This document shows, piece after piece, positions 19,510 through 22,241 of a stretch of 22,241 bases of DNA (the first letter of the stretch is position 1; every line of letters starts with the position of its first letter). Below the pieces are notes generated by a model. That model saw only the letters and a list, made by a program, of their open reading frames with translations, was not told where the DNA came from and ran no database searches. The DNA lies in UHGV virus genome UHGV-1381228. One strand, 5' to 3'. The position numbers and the translations under genes are program-made. This stretch comes from a virus.

Positions 19510-19570
19510 CTTTACCCTCGCTTATCCACATAACTTATTGATTACATTGATAACTAAAAAGATCGTCGAT

Positions 19571-19915
19571 TCAGAACTCTTCGATGTTCCAGCCACCACC
19601 TGCTTTCTTTGGTTTAACCGTTACCCCGATGATTCGGAACGGATACTGATCTGCGGCGACTTTGGTTTTCACCCTGGCGTCGTCGGTCCAGAAACCTTTC
19701 ACTTCGTGCAGTTCCATCTCTCCGGTGGCGAGCATCACAGCGAAATCGGGCGTATAGAACGTGTTGTCAGCTAACCGCAGCTTGATACCCTCGAATCGAT
19801 ACCAGGCGATTTCCCCTGCACGTTTACGCTGCTCAAGGTGCTGGCAATACGCAGATTCTGTTTTGTTCATCTGGCCTGTTTTGAGTCGACCAAGAGCCTG
19901 TATCTGTTTTCTCAT
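19571..19915 (-). CDS. conserved phage hypothetical protein (114 aa), possibly DUF1064-like
   Basis: First gene downstream of the P-like gene; its Shine-Dalgarno AGAGGT lies inside a TTACCT-N3-AGGTAA palindrome; family assignment from memory only. Confidence 0.45.
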   Translation of the reverse strand: MRKQIQALGRLKTGQMNKTESAYCQHLEQRKRAGEIAWYRFEGIKLRLADNTFYTPDFAVMLATGEMELHEVKGFWTDDARVKTKVAADQYPFRIIGVTVKPKKAGGGWNIEEF

Positions 19916-20032: not shown

Positions 20033-20809
20033 TTACTTGATAAATCCTGCCGCCTTTCCCCGCCTGTATTCCTCCATCAGCCACTGCGCCGGTGTTATTC
20101 CCCCAAGGGTGGCGGCGTTAGGCATGCACCCGAAACTTCGCCCTGGTGGATGGTAAACGTCTCTCCCTGTGTCCGGAGGTGTACTCATGGGCTCTGGCTT
20201 TGCCTGTATGCTGATCACCGGATCGGGTATCTGCTGTCCGGAAGCCACCTTTTTCGCCCAATCATCGAGCAGCCTGCGCGCGTGTTTCTCAACCTCACTC
20301 TCGCTAAGCTGGCGCTGATACATTGCACGACGGGTATCACATACGACCCAGTACATAACCGGATGCCGCCACGGGAATCTTTCGGGACCACCAGGATATA
20401 AACTTTTTTCCTTGCTGTACCGGTGAAACTCCGCCATCACATCGTCAATGGTGACGCCAAGAACCATCTTGCTGTCTTTGCACCACTTGATGAATTGCCC
20501 TGGCGACGGCCAGAACGGAGATTCACTGGCGCGGGCGTGGCGCATACCAGCGTTAACCTGTTCCATTGTAGTGATCCCATTCTCCAGAAACGCAAGCATC
20601 CATTGCTTACGGAATTCATTAAGTTTGTTCTGCTCCCTTATGGTCGAAACGCTTGCAGGAAATGCAGCCTGTAACTGGACAAATAGTTCATTGAAAATTC
20701 TAGCAACCTGCTCCTTTTTGCCATTGCTGTCACGCCGCTCTTCATGCACAGCAACACCATGCTCACGTAAGCGATCGTACTCATTGAGAAGTTCTGGAGT
20801 TGATTTCAT
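20033..20809 (-). CDS. replication protein P-like helicase loader (258 aa)
   Basis: Segment FVQLQAAFPASVSTIREQNKLNEFRKQWMLAFLENGITTMEQVNAGMRHARASESPFWPSPGQFIKWC closely parallels lambda P as recalled (...ATFPASLANRDQNEVNEIRRQWVLAFRENGITTMEQVNAGMRVARRQNRPFLPSPGQFVAWC). Confidence 0.75.
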   Translation of the reverse strand: MKSTPELLNEYDRLREHGVAVHEERRDSNGKKEQVARIFNELFVQLQAAFPASVSTIREQNKLNEFRKQWMLAFLENGITTMEQVNAGMRHARASESPFWPSPGQFIKWCKDSKMVLGVTIDDVMAEFHRYSKEKSLYPGGPERFPWRHPVMYWVVCDTRRAMYQRQLSESEVEKHARRLLDDWAKKVASGQQIPDPVISIQAKPEPMSTPPDTGRDVYHPPGRSFGCMPNAATLGGITPAQWLMEEYRRGKAAGFIK

Positions 20810-21611
20810 CCCACACCCCTTCTATCCAGTCAGTGTTATTCCAGTCAAGCTCATCGCTTTTCCCGGCATTTTTTGATTTTCCCCTGATATGATTTACGTG
20901 CCTGGCGAATTTTTGTTCCCACTGAACCTGCGTGAACACTTTGCCCTCAGCCATCCAGTAATCCCGGAATGCAGCAAGTTCAGCAGGTGTAAATTCCGGT
21001 TCCGGCAGGGCCGTTCCCCACAGCGCAGCACGCCGCCGAAAATCTGGCGACGGTAGCCAGCCATCTGTCATCGGAAATTTCCCGATGGGTTCACTCAGGC
21101 CATCCAGAAATTCAGGTTCTGCCACCTGCAACGGCGTACTGTTCGCTTCACTGGTCGGAGCACCCTCGCGCACGTGCGCTATGTGTGGGGTTTTATATAT
21201 ATCTTCCTCTTCCTCTTCCTCTGGTAACTCCTTTTGTAACGCTGTTGGCGTTACTTTTTGCGTTACTCGTTTTCTATGCTCTGCCACTCTTCTATTCGTA
21301 AGTGCACGTTTTTTCGATGATTCTCCATTATGTCGCTCAAAGTTTGGAAGAATTAGTTTGCCGTCATGATAAGCAAGCCATCCGACGCTAATGAGGGCGT
21401 CAGCAAATCCTGTAATAAAAGCGAGTCTATCAAGTACTCCTTTTGTAACGCTGCCAGCGTTACCGTCTATTGTTTGCTGGTCAGCCCATGCCCATATACG
21501 AACCAGCTTTCCAAGAACAGCATCTGGATCAATACCCAGAATTTCTGCTATCTGAAAAATTTCAGGTTTATCAGGAGTGATAACTTCAACCTTAATCCAG
21601 CTGCTTGCCAT
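20781..21611 (-). CDS. replication initiator (O-position protein) with DnaT-like C-terminal domain (about 276 aa from ATG at 21611)
   Basis: C-terminal GKFPMTDGWLPSPDFRRRAALWGTALPEPEFTPAELAAFRDYWMAEGKVFTQVQWEQKFARH parallels E. coli DnaT as recalled; directly upstream of and overlapping the P-like gene; carries internal iteron-like repeats; ATG at 21611 has GAGGGG upstream (the track start is a GTG at 21629). Confidence 0.65.
   Translation of the reverse strand: MASSWIKVEVITPDKPEIFQIAEILGIDPDAVLGKLVRIWAWADQQTIDGNAGSVTKGVLDRLAFITGFADALISVGWLAYHDGKLILPNFERHNGESSKKRALTNRRVAEHRKRVTQKVTPTALQKELPEEEEEEDIYKTPHIAHVREGAPTSEANSTPLQVAEPEFLDGLSEPIGKFPMTDGWLPSPDFRRRAALWGTALPEPEFTPAELAAFRDYWMAEGKVFTQVQWEQKFARHVNHIRGKSKNAGKSDELDWNNTDWIEGVWDEINSRTSQ
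21190..21465. repeat. candidate replication-origin region: AT-rich tract plus palindromic iteron-like repeats inside the initiator gene
   Basis: AT-rich run about 21191-21201; GTAACGC-TGTTG-GCGTTAC at 21236-21254; extra GCGTTAC at 21260-21266; GTAACGCTG-C-CAGCGTTAC at 21445-21463; 18-bp direct repeat ACTCCTTTTGTAACGCTG at 21227-21244 and 21436-21453 in different codon phases. Confidence 0.5.
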
Positions 21612-21804
21612 AGGTTTCCCCTCTTGCACTCTTTAGTGCACAAGCAAATTCATTACGATGGCGGTTGGCGCTATTCATTGCACATTCAACACATGTTCCG
21701 TTCAGAACATACCTTTCAGAGAGATGGCCGTGACGGCACCGCTTTCCTGTGAAATAGCGATTTAACCCGGCTTTTGCGGCCTCCATTCTGGTTACTATCT
21801 TCAA
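21592..21804 (-). CDS. small zinc-ribbon-like protein (64-70 aa), start uncertain
   Basis: Contains RCRHGH...CVEC; sits between the Cro-like gene/terminator and the initiator, the position cII occupies in lambda, but is not cII-like. The track start is TTG at 21804; an internal ATG is at 21786. Confidence 0.4.
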   Translation of the reverse strand: MKIVTRMEAAKAGLNRYFTGKRCRHGHLSERYVLNGTCVECAMNSANRHRNEFACALKSARGETYGKQLD

Positions 21805-21901
21805 TTTTTCCGCCCCTTTTTGTTATTGATATTGACTATTTTGCACAATTGGAAAATTTGATCAACCAGATTTGGTTTTTTATTACCCTTAAGGTGCGAA
21901 T

Positions 21902-21930
21902 AGATATGAAAAGACCGCCGGATGGCGGTC
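21902..21930 (-). terminator. intrinsic terminator after the Cro-like gene (GACCGCC-AUCC-GGCGGUC then UUUUCAU), tR1-like position
   Basis: Perfect 7-bp GC-rich inverted repeat followed by a T-run on the minus strand, about 23 nt after the stop at 21953. Confidence 0.5.
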
Positions 21931-21952
21931 TACAGAGGGTTGTGGCTGGATA

Positions 21953-22183
21953 TCATGAGTAGAAGAAGTATGCCAGTTCTGCTTTTGAGCGCAGCCATTG
22001 TCTTGTTTTACAGGCTTTAAAAAGCCCATTCATCAATACTTTACCTGGCATTTTGCGCTTGCCTGTTAAGTGAGTCTGGATATAGTGACTCGTCGTTCCG
22101 GCTTCCTGTGCGAAGGCTTCACGCTCATCCGGAGTAAGTGCAAGCCAGTGCTTTTTGAAATCGAAATGTCCGTTATCGCTCAT
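21953..22183 (-). CDS. Cro-like helix-turn-helix regulator (about 77 aa)
   Basis: HTH-like segment DEREAFAQEAGTTSHYIQTHLTGKRKMPGK resembles the Cro/YdaS-type pattern; first gene of the rightward operon. The track ORF extends into the adapter (MCIRDR); the real start is ATG at 22183. Confidence 0.45.
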   Translation of the reverse strand: MSDNGHFDFKKHWLALTPDEREAFAQEAGTTSHYIQTHLTGKRKMPGKVLMNGLFKACKTRQWLRSKAELAYFFYS

Positions 22184-22193
22184 AGCTATTGCC

Positions 22194-22241
22194 CTGTCTC
22201 TTATACACATCTGACGCTGCCGACGATATGCAGTGTGTAGA
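22194..22241. other. Illumina Nextera adapter remnant (Tn5 mosaic end CTGTCTCTTATACACATCT plus read-1 primer, index and P5 start); not biological
   Basis: CTGTCTCTTATACACATCTGACGCTGCCGACGA is the reverse complement of the Nextera read-1 adapter; followed by an 8-nt index-like TATGCAGT and GTGTAGA. Confidence 0.9.

Follow-up and report, generated by a model that had tools for sequence, protein, structure and literature searches.

Repeated half-sites within the initiator gene of an epsilon15-like phage as a probable replication origin

UHGV virus genome UHGV-1381228, a 22,241-nucleotide (nt) stretch of phage DNA that we refer to as the window, carries two clusters of short repeats inside its replication initiator gene (20781–21611, minus strand). 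We consider it likely that these repeats, built from 7-base pair (bp) half-sites with the consensus (G)GTAACGC(T), serve a temperate Escherichia coli phage of the epsilon15-like (Uetakevirus) group as its vegetative replication origin, located within its own initiator gene. An origin in this position is the textbook lambdoid arrangement. A sequence-only reading of the window had proposed a lambda-type origin here on the basis of two palindromes, an 18-bp direct repeat with copies 209 bp apart and an AT-rich tract. All of these elements are present inside the 276-amino acid initiator open reading frame (ORF), and the lambda-type layout was borne out on each point that can be tested by sequence comparison, namely position, neighboring genes and conservation at the DNA level. 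The window is 97–99% identical over most of its length to HEMP4, vB_EcoP_ZX5 (ZX5), phiv142-3 and TL-2011b, which are temperate E. coli podophages of the genus Uetakevirus in the epsilon15 group.

Results

Cluster A (21445–21463) is a 19-bp palindrome, GTAACGC-TGCCA-GCGTTAC, with half-sites at 21445–21451 and 21457–21463. It reads GTAACGC tggca GCGTTAC on the coding strand (21463–21445), and at its full extent (GTAACGCTGCCAGCGTTAC, 21445–21463) it has the form 9-1-9. Cluster B (21224–21266; gene nt 346–388 of 831) is the array proximal to the candidate unwinding element and holds four half-sites in exact 12-bp register, two on the minus strand (21260–21266 and 21248–21254) and two on the plus strand (21236–21242 and 21224–21230), the last being the degenerate GTAACTC. 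The coding strand (21266–21224) reads GTAACGC aaaaa GTAACGC caaca GCGTTAC aaaag GAGTTAC. The inner pair forms the 7-N5-7 palindrome GTAACGCTGTTGGCGTTAC (21236–21254) that had been recognized earlier; the perfect heptamer at 21260–21266 and the one-mismatch heptamer at 21224–21230 were absent from the sequence-only reading. That reading was right that the two palindromes fall in different codon phases. Cluster A is read GGT AAC GCT GGC AGC GTT ACA and encodes amino acids 50–56 (GNAGSVT), a surface loop of the N-terminal domain, whereas cluster B is read GTA ACG CCA ACA GCG TTA CAA (VTPTALQ).

The heptamers are strongly concentrated in this gene. The window contains 8 copies of GTAACGC against 2.15 expected, a count reached in 0 of 100 shuffles, and five of the eight sit within the 228 bp from 21236 to 21463, where 0.022 would be expected (Poisson P of about 4e-11 by our own arithmetic). 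The palindrome GTAACG-N7-CGTTAC occurs only twice in the complete 39.5-kb genome of ZX5, a phage 99.5% identical to the window, both times in the initiator gene, and no further heptamer cluster was found elsewhere in that genome. The 18-bp direct repeat ACTCCTTTTGTAACGCTG (21227–21244 and 21436–21453), of which about 0.004 exact occurrences would be expected in 22 kb, again by our own arithmetic, extends to 28 nt at 89% identity. Its ACTCCTTTT part is kept beside cluster B, where it amounts to a spacer plus the degenerate half-site, and is kept beside cluster A only in close relatives, so that at cluster A this extension probably lies outside the functional site. On this ground the 18-bp repeat was ruled out as the functional unit, and comparison of the sequences points instead to the 7-bp half-site.

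Immediately after cluster B, the coding strand reads C-CAGAGGAAGAGGAAGAGGAAGA, TATATATAAAACCCC, 10 nt and then GCGCACGTGCGC. The first of these contains a 21-nt polypurine run (AGAGGAAGAGGAAGAGGAAGA, 21202–21222, coding [minus] strand) that encodes EEEEEE, is preceded by a conserved CCAGAG and had gone unnoticed in the sequence-only reading; it is the sole purine or pyrimidine run of at least 18 nt in the window. The AT-rich tract described earlier (GGGGTTTTATATATAT, 21187–21202) falls within a candidate unwinding element, GATATATATAAAACCCC on the coding strand (21187–21203). When duplexes are ranked by nearest-neighbor free energy, no other 13-mer in the window is as unstable as TTTTATATATATC (21191–21203; rank 1 of 22,229), and the 20-mer starting at TTTTATATATATC ranks sixth for instability. 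This organization recurs in other subfamilies, in which CCAGAG, a purine run of 19–25 nt and (G)ATAT..., often with AAACCCC, come after the final iteron and occur in each of the three reading frames; the arrangement ...GAAGATAT(A/T)n AAACCCC was likewise found again in homologues. The peptides encoded by the purine run differ accordingly: PEEEEEED in the window, TREEKRRED in epsilon15, SPN1S and Raharianne, PEKRREEK in a spring-water phage and NQRREEKN in L131. The element GCGCACGTGCGC itself (21168–21179), also new relative to the sequence-only reading, is a 12-bp perfect palindrome containing CACGTG, 10 nt past the AT-rich tract. Lambda has a palindrome at the corresponding place, to the right of its AT-rich region, but the element is not palindromic in TL-2011b or in more distant homologues, and whether it is part of the origin is uncertain.

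We compared about 170 homologous loci, comprising 79 viral contigs, 80 bacterial genomes and a dozen annotated phage records. Both clusters are kept in all close and moderately distant homologues. Synonymous sites were assessed in 29 non-redundant genes (<97% nucleotide identity), in which each conserved degenerate codon of the N-terminal domain outside cluster A varies synonymously. The cluster A codons G50, N51, A52, S54, V55 and T56 have a mean entropy of 0.12 bit, compared with 1.34 for 58 other conserved degenerate codons of the N-terminal domain (Mann-Whitney p=4e-5), and the individual codons are close to invariant (GGT 29/29, AAC 29/29, GCT 28/29, AGC 25/25, GTT 29/29 and ACA 24/27). 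Copy number varies by 12-nt insertions, each of which adds one heptamer and four residues: at cluster A such an insertion adds one GTAACGC in some homologues (for example, ...DG-NANS-NATSVT...), and at cluster B the number of copies ranges from 2 to 6, with up to three extra copies arising from 12-nt indels. When 464 sites from 90 non-redundant genes are pooled, (G)GTAACGC(T) emerges as the consensus; measured from center to center, the sites most often lie 12 (110 converging and 53 direct pairs), 11, 23 or 33–35 bp apart, distances that are multiples of about one helical turn.

The same 90 genes were used to ask which reading frames the sites occupy, a question on which the sequence-only reading had staked its proposal by holding that a repeated peptide encoded in one frame among homologues would speak against an origin. 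Such a peptide does occur: 62 of the 90 genes encode GNA or SNA...SVT at both clusters in the same frame, and this is what favors the view that the repeats are a coding feature, a recent internal duplication or a product of chance. Forward sites of cluster A always take the frame xGT AAC Gxx (GNA). In cluster B, however, 113 forward sites are in the GNA frame and 29 in the GTA ACG (VTx) frame, with 15 genes, the window's included, using VTx only and 11 more using both, so that 26 of 90 have another frame. In addition, the synonymous freezing is confined to the sites, and GNA and SVT are encoded by mutually reverse-complementary DNA. Because of the frozen synonymous sites, the reverse complementarity and the alternative frame in a quarter of the genes, the peptide is best read as a by-product of the DNA motif. 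Other subfamilies, moreover, keep the DNA symmetry with unrelated peptides, and the enrichment is far beyond chance. A coding or chance explanation is thus scarcely credible, and the repeated peptide, although literally present, does not carry the weight that had been assigned to it. The claim of conservation at the DNA level is upheld by the comparison of related initiator genes, through the frozen synonymous sites, the 12-nt indels, the alternative frames and the concerted change of heptamers described below.

A different possibility is that the palindromes act as RNA or DNA hairpins, such as an antisense terminator or a signal for mRNA stability or translation, rather than as protein-binding sites. 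A consensus scan does call both palindromes terminator-like on the plus (antisense) strand, and TTTTTGCGTT follows the palindrome at 21236–21254. However, that T-run is not conserved, the spacers include AAATA and AAAGT, and many sites are direct repeats that are unable to pair, as in the 53 direct pairs at 12 bp; cluster B of some homologues (for example, L096 and L164) consists of direct copies only. The half-site sequence is also invariant within a subfamily, with no covariation. We therefore regard hairpins as a very improbable explanation.

Subfamilies whose N-terminal domain has diverged carry another heptamer, altered at both clusters together. The heptamer is GTCCGCA in epsilon15 and SPN1S (35–37% identity, 8 copies), GTAGACG in the Ralstonia phage Raharianne (7 copies), TGTCACA in a Vibrio phage (4 copies), GTTGCGC in L131 (Planctomycetales contig, 8 copies) and GTGACGC in L169. 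In epsilon15 (AY150271.2, locus 1501–2178) and SPN1S, eight GTCCGC(A)/GCGGAC half-sites form two clusters with 11–13-bp spacing, followed by CCAGAGAAGAGAAGAGAAGAGAAGATATTAAACCCC; in epsilon15 the clusters lie at gene nt 55–107 and 334–375. These repeats are a candidate origin of epsilon15, un-annotated in AY150271.2.

Members of the same genus can also differ more radically. In phiV10 (DQ126339.2, locus 949–1776), the P-type loader and the DnaT-type C-terminus of the initiator are as in the window phage, but the N-terminal domain is unrelated and the linker carries lambda-like iterons, ATCCCAAAAACGGGAT, in 5–7 copies at 24-bp spacing (gene nt 260–480). These iterons encode PKNGMLND repeats and are followed by three CAGTCATATAAC repeats. 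The nucleotide match between phiV10-type phages and the window stops at 20563, inside the loader gene, and the alignment marks this position as a recombination boundary. Taken together, the unrelated N-terminal domain and iterons of phiV10 and the end of the match at 20563 indicate that the N-terminal domain and the origin form an exchangeable module. Classical comparisons among lambda, phi80 and 82 likewise revealed an exchangeable module of N-terminal domain and origin.

The genes that flank GTAACGC-type initiators vary widely. They include cII/YdaT and DnaC-like genes in Rac-type phages, KilAC and P-like genes in VW-6S, DnaC and DnaB in PAN70, and DnaB alone. The hosts of the carriers include Enterobacterales, Pseudomonas, Xanthomonadales, Burkholderiales, Akkermansia, other Verrucomicrobiota and Planctomycetota, a spread that is unusually wide for a single iteron sequence. 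Prophage regions with this N-terminal domain and two GTAACGC clusters were seen in the most distant of these hosts, among them the planctomycete genera Stieleria, Novipirellula and Roseiconus. Since the flanking genes vary, the hosts span phyla and the N-terminal domain is the sole constant partner of the sites, this domain is the likely binder of the heptamers. The same observations bear on whether the sites are instead bound by a host factor or by another phage regulator, such as a Cro/CII-type protein or the 70-amino acid zinc-ribbon-like protein encoded next to the initiator. Our assignment of the binder is a proposal from sequence, and the phrog_1081 gene for that small protein (21592–21804) overlaps the initiator start. 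Nevertheless, with unrelated neighbors and hosts ranging from Enterobacterales to Planctomycetota and Akkermansia, any such factor would be an unlikely common reader; the motif changes as the N-terminal domain diverges, and there are no sites in the operator/promoter region. Binding by another protein is accordingly quite improbable.

Within the N-terminal domain, the motif F-x-R/A/N-H-N/L-G-x-x-A/S-K stands just before a basic helix in 8 of 8 representatives, which cover six heptamer types. In the helix itself (amino acids 97–118, window ~21258–21323), the five genes with GTAACGC, GTTGCGC or GTGACGC have R-A/S-L-x-x-K/R-R after the motif, whereas the three with GTCCGCA, GTAGACG or TGTCACA have R-A-Q/S-D/K-x-D/E-R. 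This sequence pattern hints that the helix may hold the specificity determinants.

The initiator has an N-terminal domain of the origin-binding type (amino acids 1 to ~118), joined to a DnaT-like C-terminal domain (amino acids ~175–251) by an acidic linker, for which the origin DNA codes, and it matches phrog_2509, 'replication initiation protein', with an E value of 1e-129. No Pfam or NCBIfam model matched the N-terminal domain of the window protein or of 55 homologues, and no PDB homology was found. In particular, the phage O family (TIGR01610 / PF04492) was matched by none of the 55 homologues nor by the window protein, whereas lambda O itself matches TIGR01610 with E 5e-39; by this comparison the DNA-binding domain of the initiator is not homologous to that of lambda O. 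PF09681 (Phage_rep_org_N) was matched by only one of the 55 members, at E 0.11. An AlphaFold2 model of the domain, computed from the 55-sequence alignment (mean predicted local distance difference test score 72.6), contains helices at 16–25, 29–46, 57–64 and 69–75, a beta-hairpin at 80–87 and the long basic helix at 97–118. This combination of a helix-turn-helix and a beta-hairpin leads us to predict a domain of the winged-helix type. In a Foldseek search against viral models, the matches beyond direct homologues were to 'replisome organizer' proteins (E 7e-6) and to the Phage_rep_org_N protein of Streptococcus phage Abc2 (E 1.6e-3), with DUF1376 proteins weaker (E ~1e-2 or above). Cluster A encodes the loop between helices 2 and 3 of the model, a location that fits the tolerance of this site for insertions of four amino acids.

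The C-terminal domain is homologous to the three-helix domain of DnaT that binds single-stranded DNA (ssDNA), with matches to Pfam DnaT PF17948 (E 1.6e-18) and to the DnaT structures 6aep (E 1.5e-20) and 4ou6 (E 3.8e-19) in the PDB. The protein as a whole was rejected as a DnaT (primosomal protein I), scoring 92.4 bits against a cut-off of 201 for NF002770 over amino acids 171–252 only. The N-terminal two-thirds of the initiator are unrelated to DnaT, and the ...IPPGFRG tail of DnaT is replaced by the tail DELDWNNTDWIEGV. The last residues of the initiator, LDWNNTDWIEGV, are similar to those of lambda O, LDLTNTDWIYGV (BLASTP E 0.003), with LDxxNTDWIxGV in common, whereas relatives paired with a DnaC-type loader or with no loader have the DnaT tail IPPGFRG instead. 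A tail of the lambda O kind is in keeping with the P-type loader gene that lies alongside. In databases the gene goes under the names 'primosomal protein I/DnaT', 'DNA replication protein' or 'hypothetical'; of these, 'primosomal protein I' and 'DnaT' are misleading.

For comparison with ori-lambda, we read the lambda origin directly from NC_001416. It has four TCCCTC-AAAAC-GAGGGA sites at nt 349–433 of the 900-nt O gene, then a purine-/AT-rich tract (ACAAAAGAAAAAAGAAAAGATTATT) and then a palindrome. The likeness is extensive. Each origin sits in the central part of its initiator gene, where the N-terminal domain meets the linker (cluster B at nt 346–388, the lambda sites at nt 349–433), both phages use dyad sites of the 7-N5-7 kind (TCCCTC-AAAAC-GAGGGA in lambda, GTAACGC-N5-GCGTTAC here), and in both the iterons, the purine-/AT-rich tract and the palindrome follow in the same order. 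A P-family loader gene lies downstream in each case, and the C-terminal tail LDxxNTDWIxGV is common to both initiators. There are also clear differences. The N-terminal domain is not phage_O_Nterm, and the C-terminal domain here is DnaT-like. In place of four 18–19-bp palindromes 20–24 bp apart, this phage has 7-bp half-sites with a 12-bp period and mixed orientation, and about 209 bp upstream a further cluster falls among the codons of the DNA-binding domain. A conserved GA-only purine run comes before the AT tract, which falls far short of the ~40 bp of lambda. By this comparison, the element probably works like ori-lambda with an initiator from outside the O family. Lambda O binds ssDNA (PMC7466680), and two iterons plus the AT-rich tract are reported to be enough for lambda unwinding (Dodson 1986, cited in PMC7466680). 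The present initiator gains length through 12-nt insertions, much like the O proteins of Stx phages, in which extra iterons are accompanied by 13 extra residues (PMC7466680).

Other known systems are less similar. Rac prophage has an active origin, oriJ (PMC3945230), and its replication module is also lambdoid. The Rac-type ydaU genes of E. coli 442/2 and of phage 673R7 encode the same N-terminal domain as the window initiator and carry GTAACGC arrays at nt 149–174 and 368–404. In contrast, YdaU of E. coli K-12 MG1655 has a DUF1376 N-terminal domain, linker repeats of (G)ATGTTCAAACA and a DnaC-like partner, YdaV, with no P-type loader. In the K-12 gene (NC_000913.3, locus 2120–2977), we observed direct copies of (G)ATGTTCAAACA at nt 392 and 426 and an inverted copy at 449–459, along with ATGTTCAA at nt 148 and an AT-rich stretch with GATAAAGAT repeats after the linker repeats. 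Together these repeats span gene nt 148–460, and on their sequence they are candidate iterons of Rac oriJ.

In SPP1, oriL lies inside the gene for the origin-binding protein G38P, with repeats followed by an AT-rich tract. The likeness of the present initiator to SPP1/Phage_rep_org_N proteins extends to the predicted fold of the N-terminal domain only (Foldseek E 7e-6 to 2e-3). The host range differs, the loader is of the lambda P type rather than G39P/G40P, and the ZX5 genome has no second origin copy, whereas SPP1 has oriR. Plasmid iterons, as bound by RepA, pi or TrfA, are 17–22-bp direct repeats outside the rep coding sequence and are accompanied by DnaA boxes. Here the sites are 7-bp half-sites with a 12-bp period and mixed orientation inside the coding sequence, and a pattern scan of 21168–21463 found no DnaA box in or beside the GTAACGC arrays. 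Split-iteron plasmids (P1 incC/incA and R6K) do have initiator sites in two groups around or in the initiator gene, one of which adjoins the unwinding element.

Discussion

The arrangement of sites suggests how initiation could proceed, by analogy with the lambda paradigm. The winged-helix-type N-terminal domain of the initiator would bind the (G)GTAACGC(T) half-sites, which are spaced about one turn (12 bp) apart in direct and inverted orientation. An initiator dimer might occupy each palindrome, with further protomers on the flanking half-sites, for a total of four sites at cluster B and one pair at cluster A. The resulting nucleoprotein complex would distort or strain the adjacent polypurine/AT-rich tract (21187–21222), causing it to melt, and the DnaT-like domain and O-like tail could then engage the ssDNA and the P-DnaB complex to load DnaB. 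Replication would start as at ori-lambda. The identity and stoichiometry of the binder, the site of melting, the contact between initiator and loader, and the role of cluster A are all inferred from the layout in this scheme.

Several observations weigh against an origin at this position. First, the searchable literature yielded no experiment on replication or binding in any of the phages with this initiator family. Second, the sites lie inside the initiator gene, where motif and domain are physically linked, and co-inheritance alone is no proof of recognition; our argument for the binder instead draws on the way the sites change in concert as the N-terminal domain diverges. Third, 209 bp (19.9 turns) separate the clusters here and 219 or 279 bp separate them in other subfamilies, so that helical phase is not kept, and we claim no helical phasing between the clusters. 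Fourth, the AT-rich tract is short (~13 bp) and at a 40-bp scale ranks only 120 of 22,202.

Two further points not only count against the proposed origin but would also suit a scheme in which initiator-bound sites serve autoregulation or copy control, by a roadblock or by handcuffing, with the true origin elsewhere, for example in the intergenic region 21805–21950. Cluster A has no counterpart in lambda and no adjacent unwinding element, and the intergenic stretch 21814–21890 is as AT-rich as the cluster B tract at a 30–40-bp scale. This AT-rich region upstream of the replication genes also contains a relaxed DnaA-box match (TTTTGCACA, 21839–21847). However, that intergenic region contains neither GTAACGC nor any other repeat family, and none turns up in the rest of the phage genome. 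A pure operator role would also leave unexplained why the purine/AT element is conserved as DNA in three frames, and the layout copies ori-lambda. We consider this alternative unlikely and continue to favor an origin at the repeats themselves.

One question raised by our analysis is the function of cluster A. Because it is kept in every subfamily with a matching heptamer, it evidently matters. As an auxiliary site it might help the DNA to loop or wrap, or it might exert control; a control role like that of split plasmid iterons is offered as a hypothesis by analogy. We also entertain, more tentatively, a broader interpretation that we think possible although doubtful, in which the repeats and their initiator form a portable, phylum-spanning cassette whose coding sequence is dictated by the iterons, the purine run and the AT tract, and which is obligatorily bipartite, with cluster A acting in looping, wrapping or cis control. 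The signals do overlap with the peptides, iterons being read as GNA/SVT or VT and the (GAGAA)n or (GAGGAA)n purine run as REEKRRE or EEEEEE. A bipartite architecture of this kind is not known to have been described for lambda or other phage origins.

Nothing established is overturned by these results, since an origin inside the initiator gene is already textbook knowledge. The initiator family is widespread and the kind of origin is familiar; the family itself, its two-cluster layout and the conserved purine tract appear undescribed. In the literature that could be searched, neither GTAACGC iterons nor the two-cluster layout is described, nor is any origin for this family; the ZX5 paper makes no mention of an origin. 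For epsilon15-like phages, ZX5 and TL-2011b among them, our work provides a concrete candidate origin that can be tested, as it does for many prophages whose initiator is mislabelled 'primosomal protein I / DnaT' or 'hypothetical', found in Enterobacterales, Pseudomonas, Xanthomonas, Ralstonia, Akkermansia and Planctomycetota. With at least six heptamer types on one protein scaffold, the family offers a natural series for studying how a winged-helix-type domain reads DNA. It is also a case of overlapping codes in which a DNA signal shapes a protein, one 12-bp iteron being worth four residues and one purine tract being read in three frames. Finally, compact, orthogonal origin-initiator pairs might serve as vector modules or help to predict incompatibility or exclusion between co-resident prophages.

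Genomic context of the replication genes

Both ends of the window carry Nextera transposase adapter sequence, at 1–46 (...GTCTCGTGGGCTCGGAGATGTGTATAAGAGACAG) and 22194–22241 (CTGTCTCTTATACACATCTGACGCTGCCGACGA...), and identity to phages is confined to 47/48–22193. The window is thus an assembly contig bounded by adapters. The repeats are held in an early rightward-type operon, here transcribed from the minus strand. The initiator gene (20781–21611) appears in the ORF list, and its 276 codons are counted from the ATG at 21611, which the ZX5 annotation uses; an in-frame GTG at 21629 is the start of the mechanically called ORF. Downstream lies the lambda-P-type helicase-loader gene (20033–20809, minus strand; Pfam PF06992 Phage_lambda_P, E 5.1e-56; phrog_109 'P-like helicase loader', E 1.6e-89), which overlaps the end of the initiator gene by 29 nt, followed by a DUF1064 gene (19571–19915, minus strand). 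Upstream, the phrog_1081 gene (21592–21804, minus strand) encodes the 70-amino acid zinc-ribbon-like protein, with a CxxxH...CxxC pattern (CRHGH...CVEC). The last 20 nt of this gene overlap the beginning of the initiator gene, so the two may be translationally coupled. A sigma-70 scan found no internal promoter in the initiator gene that the sites could regulate.

DnaA-box patterns match four times in the window against 2.0 expected, which is not significant, and two of these matches (31–39 and 22201–22209) are adapter sequence. One perfect consensus DnaA box, TTATCCACA, lies at 19522–19530, in the short gap between the DUF1064 gene and the next downstream gene. Cumulative GC skew is monotonic across the region and is uninformative because all genes there are on one strand.

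The gene in the Cro/CII position extends from 21953 to ~22183 on the minus strand. The mechanically called ORF (21953–22210) starts within the adapter (MCIRDRAIA-), and the true start is probably the ATG that gives MSDNGHFDF. Between this gene and the replication genes is a strong terminator-like hairpin (21931–21912, minus strand), AGACCGCC-ATCC-GGCGGTCT followed by TTTCATATCT, and the annotation of phiV10 lists a putative rho-independent terminator at the corresponding position. The hairpin suggests a tR1-like arrangement in which expression of the replication genes would need read-through or antitermination.

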